NCBI GenBank assembly: GCA_000165345.1
Contig: CM000434.1
Location: forward strand, 1,184,001-1,248,000
Length of the DNA stretch: 64,000 nucleotides
Direction: 5' to 3'
The stretch's first letter is position 1. Each line of letters begins with the position of its first letter. A program made the translations under genes and the position numbers. Below the pieces are notes generated by a model. The model saw only the letters and a list, made by a program, of their open reading frames with translations, did no database searches and was not told the origin of the DNA. Below are positions 8,680 to 49,470 of this stretch, one piece after another.

Positions 8680-9591
8680 TCATGATTTATCACTATAATA
8701 TTCGCTACTATCATCTTCCTTAATATGTTCTAGCTGACTAAACAGTTCACTTGCATTGCTTGGCTTTGGATTATATATTGATCTAGAAGTAAGTTTTTCC
8801 CTTGATTCAATCAAAGGTGACTGTTCATTCTCATCAAGTTCATTATCTTGACTGTATCCTGCATCTCTCAACTCACTGCTAAGACTTTTGTACTTAGAAT
8901 AACTGTTTCTGGGACTTCTACTGATGAGTGAAATTGGCTTCCTTAGTGAGGGCAAATTGATTCCATAATTATAATCTGTAAATGTATGCATTGTTTGTAA
9001 TCTATTACTAACTAATTTATTAATTCCTTGTTCCATTGCATCACTCTTGTTACTAAATCTCTGCATCTCTGTTACATTAATACTTTGAGAATCACTAGTA
9101 ATACCATTATCTTCTGAAGCCATTTGCAGAATTTCGACCATGTACATTCTTAATTGCTCGGATGAAAGACTTGCATAAGTTGGAAGTAGAGTTCCAACTC
9201 CTTGTACAAAATGAGTTCTTACTTGTGTTTCATCAAAACCACTAACTAGTTCCATTATATCTCTTGTTGGCACAATTTTATCATTAAGACTTTGTACAAT
9301 CATCAGACTTTGAAATCTTTCAGGCTCTAATTCCATTCTACTAAACGTAAATCTTCTAAAGTTTATGATAGATGGAGAAAACATTATCACAGGAACTTTG
9401 CTTATCCTTGAGTTTACCTTGCTCACGCTAACTGCTGAAAAATCTGACGTCATAATTATCTCAGGCTTGAAGGCCAATATATTCTTTTCTATTATATCTT
9501 TTGCAACATTTGCACAACGCTTCAATACTATTATCCCAGTTATTCTATACCCTACAATGATTAGAAAAGCCTTTGATTTTTTTTTGTTTTT
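8680..9591 (-). CDS. Hypothetical protein, 3' exon; 5' end unresolved
   Basis: The reading frame stays open upstream of the TTG that the ORF track used as a start, up to a TAA at 9592-9594. No in-frame ATG lies in this stretch, so an upstream exon is required. GTAAGT donors exist on the minus strand near 9626 and 9750, but the phase could not be reconciled. No family confidently recognised. Confidence 0.4.
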   Translation of the reverse strand, partial: KNKKKSKAFLIIVGYRITGIIVLKRCANVAKDIIEKNILAFKPEIIMTSDFSAVSVSKVNSRISKVPVIMFSPSIINFRRFTFSRMELEPERFQSLMIVQSLNDKIVPTRDIMELVSGFDETQVRTHFVQGVGTLLPTYASLSSEQLRMYMVEILQMASEDNGITSDSQSINVTEMQRFSNKSDAMEQGINKLVSNRLQTMHTFTDYNYGINLPSLRKPISLISRSPRNSYSKYKSLSSELRDAGYSQDNELDENEQSPLIESREKLTSRSIYNPKPSNASELFSQLEHIKEDDSSEYYSDKS

Positions 9592-21303: not shown

Positions 21304-30323
<9,020 letters not shown>

Positions 30324-40122: not shown

Positions 40123-42330
40123 TCATTTTGAAGAGATCTCTACCTTAAGTCTGGAGTTTTCCAGAGTGCAATGTGAAGGGATAAGTTGATTTGAATTTAG
40201 TACGTAGTTTGCAGCAATTTGGTTGACTATCACACTATTTAGTAGGAATTCTGCTCCAAATTCCCTATTACAAAACCAAGTAACTTTAATTGGACCATTA
40301 TATGAAGTTTCATCATGATCAGATTCTCCTAAATGTATCAGTTGAAGAGTGATTTGTGCTTGGAAGATGCCATCTTTAACTTGGAATTCAAGAATTTTTG
40401 GTAGGAAACTAAACATTTCCAGCTCAATTTTGGATTGATCAATATTCTTAAATTCTGTATGTTGGCCAGTAAAGAAGGACCAACTAGACAGTATTTGGAT
40501 GTCTTTTGCATTGATTAAGCCTTTCTGACTATTTAGAAGTGATGATTTTGAGAAATCATCGAATAATAATTCAAGATTGATTGGGACTTCTAAATTGTCT
40601 GTATATGGTGATATAGTAATAGTACTATGTGGAATTCCATCATTCATATTATTTACATTATTTGAGGAACCTTCTAAGCTTTGATTAACTCCTGGAATAA
40701 TAGTTTCCCTTTCTGGAGGAGGTATTGCTTCTGGAAAATGAGAAATTGAAGATCCAGATTGATGCATGATTCCAATATTTTGATCTAAAGAAGTAATAGT
40801 AAATTGCCCTCCATCATTAAGTAACCCTTTAATACTTAGAGCTTCCATCTTTGGAGTCTCATTATTGCTAATTAAATACCCATAGAAGGTTGTTCTTAGT
40901 TTTCCTCTAATTTGAACCATTAGTTGAGGTGTAATAACCAGAGATTCAACAGAAATGCTTGGCATAGGGATTTGTCTTAAAGGAGGTGGTGGCAGTACTG
41001 CCAAATTTAAATTAGTTTTTGCTGATCTAATTGCAGAATCCATTAATGGAGAAGAACTTCCTACTCCATGCAAATCTAGATCAAAACTCTTGATAGGTAT
41101 GTGATGGCTTGTATTTTCTCCAAAATCTAATGATGGCCTTAAACTCTTTAAAATTACTTCATCCTTAATAAGATTATGCATATTTAAAGTACCTTTAAGG
41201 CTCATTTCAGACTTTCTTCCTATTAATATATCCGAATCATCAATTTTTACGATACCAAGATAGTTATTTCGGTGAAATACTCCCAAGAAGATTTTTCCTA
41301 AATTATTTACAAAGATTCTTCCTCTATAATCATAATTAACCTTGGAATTAAATATAATATTGGAATTGTGACCAACTTCTCTATCAAAAGATATATCAGA
41401 AAGTTGTACATTTGTAATAAGCTCTTTTAATGGCATTGAAATTGTGAATTTTTTTGACATGATTTGGTTTTCATCATTATTTTGTATTCCTGGAACAACC
41501 ATTTGAGTCTTTACCATTACATCTGTAAATCCTTTTGTAATAATATCATGTATTATTCCACTAATACCTACCATATGTGTAGCATTTGAACTTGCATGAA
41601 TCATTACATTCAATTTATCAGATTGAAAAATATCTAAAGAATGAGGACTACTTATTCTCGCAATTGGAATAGAATTCCATTCAACTTTTGCATTTTCTAA
41701 TGGTAAAACCACCTTTGCATTTCTAATTTGTAAACCTTCTTTTGGTGGTGCATTAATATTGACCATTAAAGATGTTTCCAATTTCTCTTGTCCATGATCT
41801 GTTCCAAAATCCACAAATATATCTTCTACATTAAATTCTAAATCTTTAAGTAAAGTTTCATTCCACCCTTGGCTTTTTCCCAAATAAAAGAAAGCTCCTA
41901 GTATTCCAATAATAAAGATAAATCCAATTAGTATTGTGAATACTACATAAAACAACCTATTGGAAGTAAATATTGGTCTCCTTTCATAATTATTGGATTC
42001 TATGTTTTCATTTGGATGACTTTTGTAATAAGCATCACTTTCTTTCATCTCTTCACCTTGTATTCCACATGTATTGTTTCCATGTGTTTGCGGAGTTTTA
42101 ATATCTACAATACTATTTGGGGATCCAATAATGGTGCTGGGACTAAACTCTTCATCTAGATATAGTTCACTTGCTGGAGATTGAATTCTTAGAGAAATTA
42201 CATCTCTATTCTCTTCCCATGATCTTGCATCAAAGTATCTTGCTGATGGATGAGAAACTGTTGAAATAGATGGAGTTCTTACTGTATTAATTACATCCTT
42301 ATTTTCTTCGGCATTATTATTGGCTTCCAT
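40123..42330 (-). CDS. Type II single-pass membrane protein (735 aa) with large beta-rich ectodomain/luminal domain; possibly LEA_2/NDR1-HIN1-like repeats; paralog of the 43175 gene
   Basis: The N-terminal 125 aa are hydrophilic, followed by one TM (LFYVVFTILIGFIFIIGILGAFFYL) and about 580 aa C-terminal to it. The motif PPKEGLQIRNAKVVLP right after the TM is shared with the neighbouring gene (PKIAEIQIRNSKMDIQ). Confidence 0.65.
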   Translation of the reverse strand: MEANNNAEENKDVINTVRTPSISTVSHPSARYFDARSWEENRDVISLRIQSPASELYLDEEFSPSTIIGSPNSIVDIKTPQTHGNNTCGIQGEEMKESDAYYKSHPNENIESNNYERRPIFTSNRLFYVVFTILIGFIFIIGILGAFFYLGKSQGWNETLLKDLEFNVEDIFVDFGTDHGQEKLETSLMVNINAPPKEGLQIRNAKVVLPLENAKVEWNSIPIARISSPHSLDIFQSDKLNVMIHASSNATHMVGISGIIHDIITKGFTDVMVKTQMVVPGIQNNDENQIMSKKFTISMPLKELITNVQLSDISFDREVGHNSNIIFNSKVNYDYRGRIFVNNLGKIFLGVFHRNNYLGIVKIDDSDILIGRKSEMSLKGTLNMHNLIKDEVILKSLRPSLDFGENTSHHIPIKSFDLDLHGVGSSSPLMDSAIRSAKTNLNLAVLPPPPLRQIPMPSISVESLVITPQLMVQIRGKLRTTFYGYLISNNETPKMEALSIKGLLNDGGQFTITSLDQNIGIMHQSGSSISHFPEAIPPPERETIIPGVNQSLEGSSNNVNNMNDGIPHSTITISPYTDNLEVPINLELLFDDFSKSSLLNSQKGLINAKDIQILSSWSFFTGQHTEFKNIDQSKIELEMFSFLPKILEFQVKDGIFQAQITLQLIHLGESDHDETSYNGPIKVTWFCNREFGAEFLLNSVIVNQIAANYVLNSNQLIPSHCTLENSRLKVEISSK

Positions 42331-42929
42331 ATTTATTATTCCTCTTTATTTTTCTAACTTTCTTATTTACCCAGTATGACACAAGAAAAATGGTCAATTC
42401 TCAAATACTAACAAAGTTAATTCAGATAATTATATTCAGTTTTCTGCATGGATTAATTCGAATATTTTAATCTAAAAAAAAACTTCTTTTTATCTCCTGA
42501 ATGTACTGATATGCCCCCTTTTATTTCTGTTATCTTAATATTTTGGCCTTACAAATTTTTGCAAATTTCTCTCTTGGGTTGCACATTTTGCTCCAATTTT
42601 GGAAAAAATTGTATTCTGACTTCATTTATAACTTTTTATTGATGATGCATTTTATAAAAACTTCATAAACCGCTATAGTATAATGCATATTCCAAATTTC
42701 CGCCTTTCCTCATGCTCTAAGCTGACATTTTGGTCAGTTTCCTCTTGATTATTATATTGTCCACATGAAAAAAATGTGAAAATTTTAAAAAATGGCGAAT
42801 AAAACAGAACAATAATAGCTGTAATGAATGAGTGAGTTAGAATGATTATAGCGTGTCAATTTCAAGTTTGATTAGTTTTTAGAATTTCCCCCCACACAAA
42901 AACTCCAGAAAATCTCCACGTCATTGCCG

Positions 42930-42967
42930 GCATGCATGCGTTTGAATGAATGCATGAATGCATGCAC
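42930..42967. promoter_or_regulatory. GCATGCATGCG TTTGAATGAATGCATGAATGCATGCAC: GCATGC cluster in divergent spacer
   Basis: The only GC-containing island in the 844-bp spacer between the two paralogous membrane-protein genes. Confidence 0.5.
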
Positions 42968-43174
42968 TCAGAATCGTTTTTTAAATAAAAAAAAATAAAT
43001 AAAAAAGTAGAAAGGATTGAAAAGCAAAAAGACAAAAAATAAGGAAAACTTCGAAAAAAAGAAGTTTGTTGGGATTTCTTCAAAGTCATTAACTTACAAT
43101 TTAGAAGAGTCAGTATTGAAAAAATAGACATTGAAAAAAGTACTAGGAAATTGAATAATATGATTATGTAAATT

Positions 43175-44214
43175 ATGACAGATTTTGTGACAAAAAAACT
43201 AGAAGTAGAAAATAAAGCTTCTAAAAGTGAAAATAGTGAGGAAATCGATTTAAATAATAAGGAAACATTTGTAAATCAAGTAGTTAGTGATGAAAATACA
43301 ATTTGTACAAGAGGAACAGAATCTTCGATTTTCACAATCTTGAGGAATTCAAGGAGAGAACATTTCTTTGATGCTCGTATAAAGTTATATAAAGAGAAGC
43401 TTAGTTTAATGGAGAAAGAAGGTAAGATGAAGTTCAGTAAGGGGATAAACTCTCGAAAAAGTATGCAAAGATGTTGCAAAATGAATAAATATCAAATATA
43501 CCGTATATTGATTACTATTTTGGGAGTTTTTTTTATGTTATTAGCATTGTTTGGTGTATCATTCTTATTGTTGCTTCCAAAGATTGCTGAAATTCAAATA
43601 AGGAACTCAAAAATGGATATTCAAGAAATCAATGTTTTTCAGATTAGTAGGCAGAATGGAGAAACTTCATTTGAAGTGGATTCAATATTGGCTATAGATA
43701 AAGTATCAAAGTACAAGACTGAGTTTATTCATTCATTAATGCAGATAAGCTATGGAATAAAAGGAGAAGAAACTAAATCTTTGGGTGAATTATATATTTC
43801 ACAGATGTCTGTGAATGAGGATGGAATTTTAAAAGCAAGAGGAAGATTTACAATAAGGAATAATGAATCACTTAATGAATTGATTAATTACATGACATCA
43901 AGTTTGAATGTTAATAACAAGGATGAAGCTATAGAGAAGAATATCACATTTTATGGGAAAGGTTTAATGTCTCTAAGGATCTTTGGAATATTACTAAATA
44001 ACATAAATGTGGATAGAGAACTGAGCTATTCTTCAGTTTATGGATTGAATGGAACGTCTGAAAGAAGTTCTATTAATGGAAAGGAGGTTAGAGACAGAGT
44101 TTCTTCTGATAATGCCCCACTTTCGAACAAAAATGGATTAAAAATTCATAATATTTGGTTAAACTCTCACAAAATGGGTGGTATGAGATTGAATCTAGAG
44201 CTTGAACTTGATTT
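43175..44214 (+). CDS. Type II membrane protein paralog (5' part; ORF continues into N-masked region)
   Basis: Cytoplasmic N-terminus, then one TM (IYRILITILGVFFMLLALFGVSFLLLL), then the shared QIRNSK motif. There is no stop before the masked stretch. Confidence 0.6.
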
Positions 44215-47175
44215 TCANANANNNANNGNTNANAATNGNANANNANNNNNNTNNAANNAGNTNTTNNNNNNNNNNNCNNNANNTNGNNNATANNGNNNNC
44301 TNANNNNANNNNTNNNAATANNNANAATNNNANNTNNNTANTGCANANTCNNNTNGTNNNATGNAANNNTNCNNNTTCANNTNNANNANNTTNNNNNTAN
44401 TNNNTNNGNTTTATTNNNNGNGNANNNNANNANNNNNNATNNNNNNNNNNNNCNATAANNANNNTNTTNNAAAANNNGNNANNTCCNANNNNNTTNNNNN
44501 ANNNAAANNNNNNNNNTNNNGANNNGNNNNCNNNNANNNNNNNNNNNNNTNATNNNNNANTGAANNNNNNANTTNTNNNTNNTTTAAGNNGTNNNNTNNN
44601 ANNNNNATNNNNNNNNNTNNNTNNNNNNNNNNNNNNNNNNNNTNTCNNTNNNNNNNTCTNTCTNNNNTNNNTNNNTNTNTNNNNNTNTNNNNNTNTNTNC
44701 NNNNCTCNGATNANNNNNNNNNTTACTNNCTNNNANNCNTAAANTNNNNTTANATTNANNNNNTGNNCNNGATTANNNNNNNNANAANNNTAANNNCNAN
44801 NNNNNNTANNNCNNNNNNNACTNNNNNAANNNACCNGANNNTNNNNANNNNNNNTTNNNTNNNAAAGNNNNAAAAAAANNNNNNNCTTNNTCNNTNANAA
44901 ANNTNNNNCNNANCNCNNNNNAANNNTGNTNCNNNANNNNCNNNNNCGNNTNNTNNNTNATNANNNNNNTNNNTNNNNNNNNANNGNTANNNNNAATNNA
45001 NNNNNNNTNNTGNNNNNNATNTANAAAANNNTNNNNANTTNTNTCANNANNTNNNNNTNNNNANNNNTNNNNANTNNNNGNTNTNNATNNANNNAANNAN
45101 NNTNTNNNNNTCANNNNANNNNNNNNTNTNNNGGANNATNNNNNNNANNNAAANANNNNCNNNNATAANGNNNNNCNAAANNNTACANNNNTNGNNNNTT
45201 NNANANTNNCTNNNNTTANTTANTNNNNANTNCNANAANTTANNTNATTNNNANNNNNATANANNNNNCNNTNACAAGNATNNTNNGNNNNNCTNNNTNN
45301 AATNNAANANTNANACNANNNNNNNNNNTNNNNANACNNNNNNAANNNCCAANTNAANNNNNATNNANNNTNNNNNATNNGNANATGATGANNNTAANNN
45401 NNANGANNTANNNNANNNNNNNTNNNANNTNANNNNNNNNNNANTNCNNANNNNTNTNNTNNNNNNNNTNNNNCANNTTNTANNTCNNNTNNCANNNNNN
45501 NNNANNANNNTTNNGANNNGNNNNNAAANNNTNNTTATNNNTTNCTNNNNNNNNNNNANCCNNANTNCTANAGANANNCNNNNNNANACNATNNGNANNN
45601 NATTNNANCTNNATGNNNGNNNACNNNNNNNTNNTNNNGNANTNTNNNNNNNNNNTNNTNTNNNANTNANNNNNNNNNGNANANNNTTNATNNNTNNAAN
45701 ANNANATNNNNNNNTNNNTTANTNNNANNAANTANANNANNTNTTGANNNANNTNCNNANNNNNTANANTNATNNTNTNANNNANTNTNANNNNNTTCNT
45801 TNTNANNNNNGNTAAATNNNNNATNNNNGNNNNANNANNTNNNNTNGNNNTTANNNNNANTGAANNNNNAANNNATTNNTNTNTNNANTNNTNNAATTAT
45901 NCTNAATNNTTATNNGAANANNNATNNNANNTTTTGGANANNNAATNNAAAAGNNNACNNCNNATNNNNNANNANNNNNNANCNNNTAATAANAANATAA
46001 NNNNANNANNNATNNNNNNNTANATTTAANNNNTNNNNNNNTNNNNNTANNTNNNNCTATTNTTNAACTNNTTTTNNCNNNNNNNANTNNNNNNAATANT
46101 TNTNTCANTNNTAAANNNNNGNNNANNNANTNNNATNTNANNNNAGNCNANNNNNNNNNNANTCNAATNNCNNNTNTNATNATNANNNNNNANNTGAAAN
46201 TNGNNTNNATNNTGANANANAANAAANANNAAANANAANNATGNNNNNNNNAATNNNANNNNANANAAATTANANTNNATNNNNNANTNNNNNTTNTTNN
46301 AGNNNAATTNATNNNNNANNNNNANTNNTGANNNANANTNANNANTNNTNNNNNGNNNTANGNTNTANGTNTNANTNNCNATTATNNNNNNNTNNNNTNN
46401 NNNANNNNNTNNNNGNNNNNTGNTGNCNTGNNATNNTANNNNTNNNATNATNTNAANNNANTNNNNNANNNNNTNTNNNANNNNNTNATANNANNNNACN
46501 AANNNNNNNNNNNNNNNNNNNTNNNANNNNNNTNNTCNNANNNCATNNNANNNANGNAAAGANTNNANANTNNNNTNNNNNANNNAANNTNACNNNATTN
46601 NANNNTNNNNNTNTANTNNNNAAANNAATNNANTNGNTNNNANNNTTTNNNNTNNANNNNNNTNNNNNTAANTNAATNANTNNANNANNNNNTNNNCNGN
46701 NNNTNAANNNNNNNNTNNNTANNNGGNGNNANNNNNTNNNNNNNANNNTNNNNNNNNNATNNNNTNNNANNNNCANNANANNNNNCNNATNNNTNNATNN
46801 NNGNNNNNTNATNNNTNNNNNAANTNNNNNANTANANNNAATGTANTNATNNNNNNNNANTTGNANGANNGNNTANATNNNTNNNANANNNNNNNNNNNN
46901 NNTTNATANNTNCTNNNANANNNNTTGATATACAGTNGNNTATNAGNTNTCAATANNCNANANTATGTTGAAANTATGNAANTTNNTNTAANNANGGNTN
47001 NACTGNNTNTTTNNNTTGGAAAAGATGTCNANANGANCNNNTANTCAGCNNTNANNNAGANTCNNAGANANGCNTATNNTTCNGCNNACNAAGTNGANTG
47101 TATCGNAGTCAGNNTGTNATGNTNTTGNTCCNNNTGNAGTTCANGNNNTCNNATGANGNANTNGATCNNGAANTA
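44215..47175. other. Heavily N-masked interval (about 70-75% N interspersed with single residual bases); not annotatable
   Basis: Direct observation. The X-filled ORFs in the track are artefacts of N translation. Confidence 0.95.
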
Positions 47176-47334
47176 GANNAANATNANGAAGAAAAATTAC
47201 ATATTAAAGCTATTAATACTCCTCATGGTATACCATATTGGCTTGTTCCAGTATTTGAATTTCTCAAATTACCAGCTTCCAGTACTTTAAGTAGTCTAGA
47301 TTCAGCAGAGTTTGGATCAGTTACTTTTTCATAA
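47176..47334 (+). CDS. 3' end of a gene emerging from the masked region (...EEKLHIKAINTPHGIPYWLVPVFEFLKLPASSTLSSLDSAEFGSVTFS*)
   Basis: Clean ORF tail with a stop at 47332-47334. It may be the C-terminus of the 43175 gene or of a separate gene. Confidence 0.4.
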   Translation, partial: XXXXEEKLHIKAINTPHGIPYWLVPVFEFLKLPASSTLSSLDSAEFGSVTFS

Positions 47335-47541: not shown

Positions 47542-49470
47542 ATGGATGATATTTATTTGGCAGAATTTCATGGTTTTATTGATGAAAAAACATGGGAAAT
47601 TGCTAAATTAAGTATACATTATCTTCATACACTTAAAGAAAATATAATAAAAGTCTTGGAAAATGGAGGTACACTTGAGAAATATTCTCATTTAAGAGAT
47701 TTAATTGAAATTGTAAGAATATGTATTTTACATGGTATTTTAATTGGAATAAATTATTTAAATAAATCAGAAGATAATTACAAATATGATTATGGTTCTT
47801 TGTATCATTTTGTAAGAATATTCCCAGAACTTAATGAATTAGGAAAAGTTGATGATATGTGTTTTTTATCATTTTTATTAATGAATAAAGTATTTACTGG
47901 ATTTCTTGAATCTATTAAAAATCCTTCATCAAAATGGAATCAAAGAATAACAATGTATTATCATCATGCTAGTATTTTGAGATATAGTGAATTCTTGAAA
48001 GAGTTTATTTTAATAATCAACAGTTTTGAAAATTGTCTAAGAATCAAAAATTTCCATATTCCTAATAATTGGATGACTTATTTTGCAAAATTATCATTAA
48101 GATGGAATAATTTTGGAAATGATCAAACAACAGAAATATCAATTATTAATGAGAATTTTAAGAATATTAAATATAAAACAAAACAATATAATCATCATGA
48201 TCAAAAAATTCTTAAAAATCTTACAAATATTAATGATATAGAAATTGATTCTAAATCTACTTTAAGTATTTTATTAAAGCAAGAATTTGAACAAAAGATC
48301 AATTTTAAAGATTATAATATATTTGATGATAGAGCTTTTATTTCAAAATCAAGTATATTAAATTCAAATAATGAATTGGATCCAGATATATTAAGTGATA
48401 ATAATGATCATATTGTTGTATATAATGAAAGAAATATTCAAGATATTGAAGATTTATTGGGGGATATGTGGTGTCCAATGTTTGATTATTCTCCTATATC
48501 TGAAAAACTTTATTTAGAAAATGAAGAAGAAAATTTTGTAAATTATGATAATGAAAATAATAATAATAATAACAATAATGACAATAATAATGAATATAAT
48601 AAATTACAAGAAAAAGATGAAAAAAATAATATAGAGTTAAATAATATTTATAATTATGAAGATATTAATCATTATATAAATATTAATAATGAATCAGATT
48701 TATCTAATTTCAAGATTAATTATGAATTAAAATTGATAAAAAATGATAATAATGAATTGAAAGAAAGGTATTTATCTTATTATCATATTCCATTAAATAA
48801 ACAAGAAGAAAGGTTAATATTAGAATTACAAGATTATAAATGTTTTACAAAACATTGTGAAAATATATTAGAATTTGATCAAGAATCTAAATTGAATTTC
48901 TGTTGTTTTACTGGTTATTATTATTGTGATTATTGTTATGGATCAAATACATGTTCAATTTTACCAGGTCTTCTTGCAAAATATGGAAATTTAACACCAG
49001 TTCCAGTATCAATTAAATCTAAAGAAAAATTAAAAAGTCTTGAAAATATACCATTGATTAAGATTCATTCATTAACAGCTGAAATATGGGAATCTAATAA
49101 GTATATTAAACAATTGGTATATTTGAAATCATATTTATCATCATTATTAATTATGAATGATAATAATAATAATAATAATAATAAATGTCAATATAAAGAA
49201 TCAATAAAAAGAAGATTATTAAGAGAATATGATATAATATATCAATTTGGTAGATATGAATATTTTTCAGTAAATCAATTAACAGAAATAGCTTATGAGA
49301 TATTTTCACAAGAGGTTACAATGTATTCAAATGAAACAAATATTCAAATTACTGTAAGAGAAATGAAAAATATTGCAATCAATTGGAGAAAACATTTATT
49401 AAAATGTATACATTGTCAATATCAAAATAAAAATTCAAAGAAAGATTTAATTTTATCTTTAAAAGAGTAA
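47542..49470 (+). CDS. RUN-domain plus Rubicon-homology (RH/DUF4206) zinc-finger protein (Rubicon/PLEKHM1/DEF8 class)
   Basis: The N-terminus is RUN-like (LHTLKENIIKVLENGGTLEKYSHLRDLIEIVRICILHGILIG...FLSFLLMN). The C-terminal Cys/His cluster (CFTKHCENI...FCCFTGYYYCDYCYGSNTCSILPGLLAKYGNLTPVPVS...IPLIKIHSL) is followed by the helical tail typical of RH domains. In between is a poly-N/D low-complexity region. Confidence 0.6.
   Translation: MDDIYLAEFHGFIDEKTWEIAKLSIHYLHTLKENIIKVLENGGTLEKYSHLRDLIEIVRICILHGILIGINYLNKSEDNYKYDYGSLYHFVRIFPELNELGKVDDMCFLSFLLMNKVFTGFLESIKNPSSKWNQRITMYYHHASILRYSEFLKEFILIINSFENCLRIKNFHIPNNWMTYFAKLSLRWNNFGNDQTTEISIINENFKNIKYKTKQYNHHDQKILKNLTNINDIEIDSKSTLSILLKQEFEQKINFKDYNIFDDRAFISKSSILNSNNELDPDILSDNNDHIVVYNERNIQDIEDLLGDMWCPMFDYSPISEKLYLENEEENFVNYDNENNNNNNNNDNNNEYNKLQEKDEKNNIELNNIYNYEDINHYININNESDLSNFKINYELKLIKNDNNELKERYLSYYHIPLNKQEERLILELQDYKCFTKHCENILEFDQESKLNFCCFTGYYYCDYCYGSNTCSILPGLLAKYGNLTPVPVSIKSKEKLKSLENIPLIKIHSLTAEIWESNKYIKQLVYLKSYLSSLLIMNDNNNNNNNKCQYKESIKRRLLREYDIIYQFGRYEYFSVNQLTEIAYEIFSQEVTMYSNETNIQITVREMKNIAINWRKHLLKCIHCQYQNKNSKKDLILSLKE

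Follow-up and report, generated by a model that had tools for sequence, protein, structure and literature searches.

We analysed a 64,000-nucleotide stretch of Cryptosporidium parvum chromosome 6 (assembly GCA_000165345.1, contig CM000434.1, positions 1,184,001 to 1,248,000 of the forward strand; this whole stretch is called the window below), which carries two neighbouring, divergently transcribed genes, referred to here as A and B. Gene A (40123–42330, minus strand) is an open reading frame (ORF) that begins with ATG and encodes a type II-like single-pass membrane protein of 735 amino acids. Its product is 100% identical to an annotated hypothetical protein of C. parvum Iowa II (UniProt Q5CWG4); from its position, the gene is probably cgd6_5180, and the chromosome 6 contigs that carry it in several assemblies are about 1.31 Mb long. 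Gene B (43175–47334, plus strand; AlphaFold DB entry A0A7S7LFU7) bears the names cpbgf_6005190 and CHM_6g5190 in recent annotations and is therefore identified as cgd6_5190. Both proteins are already present in databases as hypothetical transmembrane proteins, and a full-text literature search retrieved no paper naming cgd6_5180, cgd6_5190 or the neighbouring locus tag cgd6_5200. An initial annotation of this DNA had located the divergent genes at 40123–42330 (minus) and from 43175 onwards (plus), and both ORFs were confirmed. It had also described their products as paralogous type II membrane proteins sharing a QIRN(A/S)K motif; the layout was borne out by our analysis, the paralogy was not.

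Much of gene B is obscured in the window by a masked stretch (44215–47190), about 60% of which consists of N and which hides residues ~348–1278 of the protein. In three unmasked C. parvum assemblies, the B ORF is 3981 nucleotides long and encodes 1326 amino acids. For the bases that remain visible in the masked stretch, agreement with the unmasked copy required an offset that rose steadily from 0 to 179. The mask has therefore inserted about 179 positions rather than preserving length, so coordinates and reading frames within 44215–47190 are unreliable, and features downstream of the mask lie 179 positions beyond their true distance from the start of B; the window copy of the gene is accordingly 179 positions too long. 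The translation of 47191–47334 corresponds exactly to the C-terminus of B, with the stop codon at 47332–47334. It had been suggested that B exceeds 1300 amino acids if the tail at 47176–47334 belongs to it, and that the unmasked sequence of 44215–47175 should be recovered; recovery yielded the 1326-amino-acid protein and placed its C-terminus in that tail.

A and B are real, genus-conserved, divergently arranged genes. Orthologues of A were identified in no fewer than 10 species or isolates of Cryptosporidium, the lowest identity being that of C. muris (39%), and orthologues of B from six further species were recovered via synteny. The head-to-head order of A and B, with the same flanking genes, was observed in C. 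parvum, C. ubiquitum, C. canis, C. felis, C. ryanae, C. xiaoi and C. muris. Head-to-head gene pairs that keep their synteny are common in the compact Cryptosporidium genome. In the C. muris B orthologue (DS989739.1), an assembly gap of 20 N (8968–8987 of the C. muris segment examined) lies just past the transmembrane (TM) helix, with a change of frame across it; the 1239-amino-acid gene model and the divergent N-terminus of this orthologue are doubtful for this reason. In the original Iowa II set in GenBank, A (EAK90090) and a Rubicon-homology protein (EAK90091) have consecutive accessions, and all the accessions of B (QOY41407 and others) are more recent; B may have been absent from the first Iowa II annotation.

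The two proteins have the same general layout, as the initial annotation had proposed: an N-terminal region of about 110–125 residues, one TM helix and a C-terminal part that is rich in beta strands, in accordance with hydropathy, charge, cysteine distribution and the AlphaFold2 (AF2) model of A. In A, the N-terminal region (residues 1–126; 41953–42330, minus strand) is predicted by AF2 to be disordered. It is followed by the TM helix (residues 127–149; 41884–41952), which is the sole hydropathy peak of the protein (2.91) and is modelled by AF2 as a helix spanning residues 124–151, and by a part modelled mostly as beta strands (residues 150–735; 40126–41883). In B, the TM helix (residues 109–133; 43499–43573, plus strand) is likewise the sole hydropathy peak (2.78). 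The helix is preceded by ERRPIFTSNR and followed by GKSQGWNETLLKD in A, and is preceded by RKSMQRCCKMNKYQIYR and followed by PKIAEIQIRNSKMD in B; as read from these flanks, the N-terminal side is the more positive in both proteins. The invariant cysteines, of which there are two in A (C687 and C721) and six in B (C617, C634, C873, C959, C1159 and C1223), all lie C-terminal to the helix, and each protein has one invariant N-glycosylation sequon, also located beyond the helix. The single hydropathy peak, the positive-inside flanks, and the even number of cysteines and the sequon past the helix together favour placing the N-terminus in the cytosol and the C-terminal part on the exoplasmic side (lumenal or extracellular), the type II orientation, in both A and B. 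The predicted ectodomains would comprise 585 residues in A and about 1190 residues in B.

We found no sequence similarity between A and B beyond the TM helix. In a BLASTP comparison of A with the visible part of B, the best match (E = 0.49) fell inside the helix. With family alignments of 10 A sequences and 7 B sequences, profile–profile comparison with hhalign gave a probability of 3%, for an alignment covering only the TM helix and the next ~50 residues, with alternative matches at E≥0.08; hmmsearch with filters off gave no more than 8.5 bits in either direction. When the A hidden Markov model (HMM) was run against 1.84 billion representative proteins, only two clusters were recovered, both consisting of A orthologues, and A is therefore without a detectable relative, B included. 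Self-comparison with hhalign identified no internal repeats in either protein. At the level of sequence, A and B thus have a common architecture and no detectable common ancestry, and the paralogy put forward in the initial annotation is not upheld.

The QIRN(A/S)K motif on which the proposed kinship had been based is, by these comparisons, a chance match. In B, QIRNSK (residues 141–146) lies within LLPKIAEIQIRNSK and forms part of PKIAEIQIRNSK (residues 135–146; 43577–43612, plus strand), directly past the TM helix. In A, QIRNAK (residues 201–206; 41713–41730, minus strand) is found about 50 residues past the helix, and the full pattern P..(E/G)(I/L)QIRN(S/A)K (residues 196–206) begins about 46 residues beyond the helix end. 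The two positions are not equivalent, and it is not the case that both ectodomains start with this pattern. The motif columns are variable among A orthologues (LYKNSN in C. ryanae, LRLKTAN in C. felis and TFENTD in C. muris), and the motif is moderately, only partly, conserved among B orthologues (YYIGISE in C. muris). Six-residue matches between A and the visible part of B with no more than one mismatch arose in 367 of 500 shuffles (73%), with a mean of 1.7 matches. Furthermore, hhalign paired the B motif not with QIRNAK, but with the first post-TM strand of A, LLKDLEFNVED. A nearer look-alike of the post-TM segment LPKIAEIQIRNS of B is LPKILEFQVKDG in A (residues 643–654; 40369–40404, minus strand), which includes the six-residue pair LPKILE/LPKIAE; the corresponding alternative hhalign match (A 640–656 with B 131–147, E = 0.13) was not significant.

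The most conserved part of A lies on the predicted cytosolic side: 57% of the columns corresponding to residues 18–80 are invariant, versus 16–37% in the ectodomain. This level of invariance suggests that the binding of a cytosolic partner may be central to the function of A. Within this segment, A contains a short motif, R[YF]FDA[RQK] (residues 31–36; 42223–42240, minus strand), which resembles the core of an FFAT motif. All 13 A orthologues fit the core pattern [FY][FYK]D[AC].[ESTD], and the extended form R[YF]FDA[RQK]SWE is invariant among them. B carries FFDAR in its cytosolic N-terminus (residues 64–68; 43364–43378, plus strand); of the 13 B orthologues, 10 have the pattern [FY]FD[AG]R, which is missing from C. 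ryanae and C. xiaoi (both with IFDGR) and from C. muris. The FDAR tetrapeptide common to A and B was considered as a possible sign of common origin and rejected, as 17% of shuffles also share a four-residue string. The FFAT motif, EFFDAxE in an acidic tract, is a ligand of the MSP domain of VAP. The segments R-[YF]-F-D-A-[RQK]-S of A and H-F-F-D-A-R of B carry its FFDA core, but they have Arg or His rather than Glu at the first position and basic or Ser-rich rather than acidic flanks.

A weak family signal was obtained for B. A match to Pfam Tag1_C (PF22786) was found at residues ~1059–1149; of the 11 distinct orthologues scanned, 7 gave it at this location, with scores of 19.5 to 26.9 bits (gathering cut-off, 27 bits) and covering profile positions ~17–110 of 113. 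In the window, this region lies at 46480–46780 (plus strand), a position that is approximate due to the shift introduced by the mask. The scores were 19.5 bits for C. parvum, 20.4 for C. hominis, 22.4 for C. ubiquitum, 19.8 for the chipmunk genotype and 23.1 for C. canis; the best score was obtained with another B orthologue (26.9 bits, E = 6e-6), for which the precomputed database annotation also lists PF22786. DUF3712 (PF12505) was matched once, in one B orthologue of the C. ryanae/C. xiaoi/C. muris group (E = 0.0073). Scanning Pfam with overlapping fragments of 220 amino acids brought no gain over whole proteins, and NCBIfam gave nothing. Homology searches with the visible 347 residues of B retrieved nothing and those with a full-length profile retrieved only Cryptosporidium orthologues; a scan of metagenome contigs with the B alignment matched 462 patterns, none of which was confirmed. 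Searches of Protein Data Bank sequences with A and B, as single sequences and as profiles, yielded nothing meaningful. The model of B had a predicted local distance difference test (pLDDT) score of 33.7, too low for use, and the middle region of the protein was predicted to be helical. B also contains a near-invariant acidic tyrosine cluster, DDDYNFDDYYKEDEDESE (residues ~717–735), located within the masked part of the window and read from an unmasked copy (L001:6952-7008, minus strand); Y721, D724, Y726 and Y727 are invariant within it, and it has the appearance of a site of tyrosine sulfation or cation binding.

The layout of A and B recalls that of yeast Tag1 (YLR173W) and fungal DUF3712 proteins, in which an unstructured cytosolic N-terminus and one TM helix precede a large, beta-rich, multi-module lumenal region. 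Tag1 is a type II vacuolar protein with a lumenal part composed of three DUF3712/LEA-2-like modules; both Tag1 and DUF3712 have been placed in the LEA-2 superfamily by Levine, and LEA-2 domains have been proposed, but not demonstrated, to hold lipid in a hydrophobic groove (bioRxiv 10.1101/2021.03.12.435176). B nevertheless differs from Tag1 in being about twice its size, in having a middle region predicted to be helical and in giving only sub-threshold profile matches; A has no sequence match to it. A similar comparison can be made with the plant LEA_2/NDR1-HIN1-like proteins (PF03168), TMEM106B and Vac7, in which an N-terminal anchor is followed directly by a beta sandwich opening with a Pro/Lys-led strand (compare LLPKIAEIQIR in B), but A and B, scanned as fragments at E-values of up to 10, matched none of PF03168, TMEM106 and Vac7, and their ectodomains of 585 and ~1190 residues contrast with a single module of ~130 residues. 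The LEA_2/NDR1-HIN1-like resemblance suggested in the initial annotation is therefore weakly supported for B, through the sub-threshold Tag1_C matches and the single DUF3712 match, and not for A, which had no match.

For A, no Pfam match was obtained with ten orthologues, their consensus or fragments. The AF2 model of A has a mean pLDDT of 50.7, rising to 70–87 over most of residues 450–735 outside the 518–570 loop, and is almost entirely composed of beta strands. The best Foldseek matches were to multi-domain chains of FN3/immunoglobulin (Ig) modules from cytokine receptors and contactins, with E-values down to 1e-4 and very low TM-scores. On the basis of this all-beta model and of these matches, A is read as a chain of Ig-like sandwiches that cannot be assigned to a family. 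The order of elements in the model (five strands, a helix and two strands) could be taken as LEA-2 topology, but this is our own reading of a prediction, and it is not discriminating.

The spacer between the two genes (42331–43174) is 844 bp long, with a GC content of 28%. Its highest-GC stretch (about 50–53%, at 42881–42970) contains GCATGC at 42930, 42934 and 42960. The initial annotation had correctly given the length of the spacer and noted this cluster, but had called it the only GC island; there is a second, weaker peak (45–47%) at ~42685–42748. A four-species alignment of the spacer revealed two footprints. The block closer to B (42916–42985) comprises CCACGTCATT, GCATGCATG, ATGCATGCAC and AGAATCGTTTTT and includes the three GCATGC sites, which are of the AP2_1/ApiAP2 type; one of them is an exact TGCATGCA. 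The cluster is 190–260 bp from the ATG of B and ~600 bp from that of A, and an exact GCATGC is present at the same B-proximal position in 5 of 7 species, C. muris included. Adjoining the cluster, at 42916–42925, an ACGT-core, CRE/bZIP-like site (CCACGTCA) was observed in C. parvum, C. ubiquitum and C. canis, with CCACGTAA in C. felis. The block closer to A (42549–42680) lies 220–350 bp upstream of the A ATG and contains no GCATGC; it includes a near-palindrome, CAAATTTTTGCAAAT, which is invariant in the four species and for which no match to described Cryptosporidium motifs was made.

The AP2_1 motif, BGCATGCAH, has GCATGC as its core and is over-represented upstream of genes in C. parvum; [T/C]GCATGC[A/G] is the sequence bound by the AP2 domain of cgd2_3490, and in Plasmodium there is a link between AP2_1 and sporozoite genes (PMC3734150). 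The conserved sites upstream of B are of this BGCATGCAH type. They differ from what would be expected of a shared, central AP2_1 element in that the cluster falls inside the B-adjacent block, and they are predicted sites. Given the two separate footprints, the most economical interpretation is that A and B are each served by a promoter block of their own, and co-regulation of A and B through the GCATGC cluster, as envisaged in the initial annotation, is therefore not indicated. A bidirectional effect of the cluster on both genes is possible.

The downstream neighbour of B (47542–49470, plus strand) encodes a protein with a Rubicon Homology domain (PF13901, E = 3.6e-10) interrupted by poly-Asn runs. 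This domain is a Rab7-binding endolysosomal module. Its location next to a possible Tag1-like gene is probably a coincidence. Elsewhere in the window, a very AT-rich region at 21304–29439 (minus strand; GC content of 18–28%, GC skew down to −0.57) is filled by one ORF of 2711 amino acids, which includes low-complexity sequence rich in Asn and Lys and a region of Gly/Arg/Glu repeats.

Taken as a whole, the explanation that we consider reasonably probable is that the locus encodes two different genus-conserved, type II-like proteins, unrelated by sequence, with B a divergent relative of the Tag1/LEA-2 proteins and A restricted to Cryptosporidium. B would then be a very divergent member of the fungal Tag1/DUF3712 branch, with an array of membrane-anchored beta modules that would either project into the lumen of a secretory or endolysosomal compartment or be displayed at the parasite surface; by analogy with the proposal for LEA-2 domains, itself unproven, this array might bind a lipid or other hydrophobic ligand. 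A would be a Cryptosporidium-only protein with an ectodomain consisting of a chain of approximately four Ig-like beta-sandwich modules, and its conserved cytosolic segment would recruit a cytosolic partner. Several points weigh against this explanation. No Tag1_C match reaches the gathering score, the results from the orthologues do not count as independent and the family consensus does no better, at 19 bits; together with the lack of gain from fragments, this makes the support for a Tag1/LEA-2 affiliation of B weak. No match to LEA_2 (PF03168) was obtained for A or B, whole or in fragments, at E-values of up to 10, and against the model of A, about half of which is of low confidence, LEA-2 structures have no scoring advantage over generic FN3, TRAF and Ig domains. 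The alignments are shallow and come from a single genus, so that a shared fold or a very old common ancestry would be compatible with them, and no records of localisation, expression or lipid binding for A or B were retrieved from the literature. The identification of B as a distant Tag1/LEA-2-type protein, which rests on profile matches and layout, is accordingly offered as tentative and is, in our estimation, somewhat short of an even chance. As the layout matches but the threshold is not reached, and as the model of B is too poor to show its fold, we have not filed either protein as a member of the Tag1/LEA-2 family.

The same data were considered in the light of other explanations. A and B could be very old inverted tandem duplicates, with each ectodomain an array of LEA-2-like modules by now too divergent to be recognised from sequence. 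The common layout and the adjacency maintained across the genus would fit such an origin, as would the presence of [YF]FDAR in both N-termini. The DSSP assignment for the A model can also be read as units of five strands, a helix and two strands (309–445, 458–638 and 640–732), one boundary of which opens with LPKILEFQVKDG, resembling the LPKIAEIQIRNS that follows the TM helix of B; the first module of B is readable in the same way, and this order matches the LEA-2 topology as described by Levine. However, none of the comparisons between A and B (BLASTP, hhalign, hmmsearch) was significant, hhalign self-comparison disclosed no repeats, a four-residue string such as that common to the N-termini is obtained in 17% of shuffles, the B model is of low confidence and the division into units is our own interpretation of DSSP strings. 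Conserved head-to-head neighbours are, in addition, commonplace in Cryptosporidium, and we regard duplication as unlikely. A role for one or both proteins as adhesin-like components of the surface or of secretory organelles, with Ig/FN3-like ectodomains binding host or parasite proteins and no function in lipid handling, would account for the Foldseek matches of A to FN3/Ig chains, the restriction of both proteins to the genus and the acidic tyrosine cluster DDDYNFDDYYKEDEDESE in the B ectodomain, and might be in keeping with the association of AP2_1 with sporozoite genes in Plasmodium (PMC3734150). Against this, no Pfam family of adhesive domains was matched and no localisation records were found in the literature. 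A type II orientation without a signal peptide is, moreover, unusual among apicomplexan adhesins, and an adhesin-like role therefore appears distinctly unlikely to us.

B alone could be an AsmA-like or other lipid-transport protein with a repeating beta groove, in which a long groove follows an N-terminal anchor. B does have one N-terminal anchor and a long sequence with many beta strands, and in UniRef a C. hominis orthologue is called “AsmA-like C-terminal domain-containing protein”. This label was not reproduced in Pfam or NCBIfam: no AsmA or AsmA_2 match was obtained in Pfam at E-values of up to 10 or in NCBIfam, even for the orthologue bearing the name, and the middle of B is predicted to be helical, with no continuous groove. 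We consider this explanation very improbable. At the far end of the range is a combined scheme: A and B would both be membrane-anchored, exoplasmic lipid-handling arrays, with LEA-2-like sandwiches or an AsmA-like groove, and the conserved cytosolic [YF]FDAR would be a degenerate FFAT motif docking an MSP/VAP-type partner. We would give this scheme hardly any credence. The explanation preferred here remains that of two different type II-like proteins, with B tentatively related to Tag1.

The finding as it stands carries little weight: both genes are already in databases as hypothetical and the proposed paralogy fails. It does provide four useful corrections: B is a protein of 1326 amino acids; the shared motif is, as judged from the sequences, a chance match; the GCATGC cluster is a known AP2_1 motif lying next to B; and there is a weak Tag1/LEA-2 lead for B. 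If the FFAT-docking scheme were true, a lumenal or host-facing lipid-transfer module would be coupled to an endoplasmic reticulum contact site, and such a device could act at the host–parasite interface of a parasite that scavenges host lipids. If the Tag1 lead were to be confirmed, a predicted lumenal lipid-binding family of type II proteins, so far described in fungi, animals and plants, would reach an early-branching apicomplexan, and this would provide a starting point for the study of two conserved Cryptosporidium membrane proteins of unassigned function.

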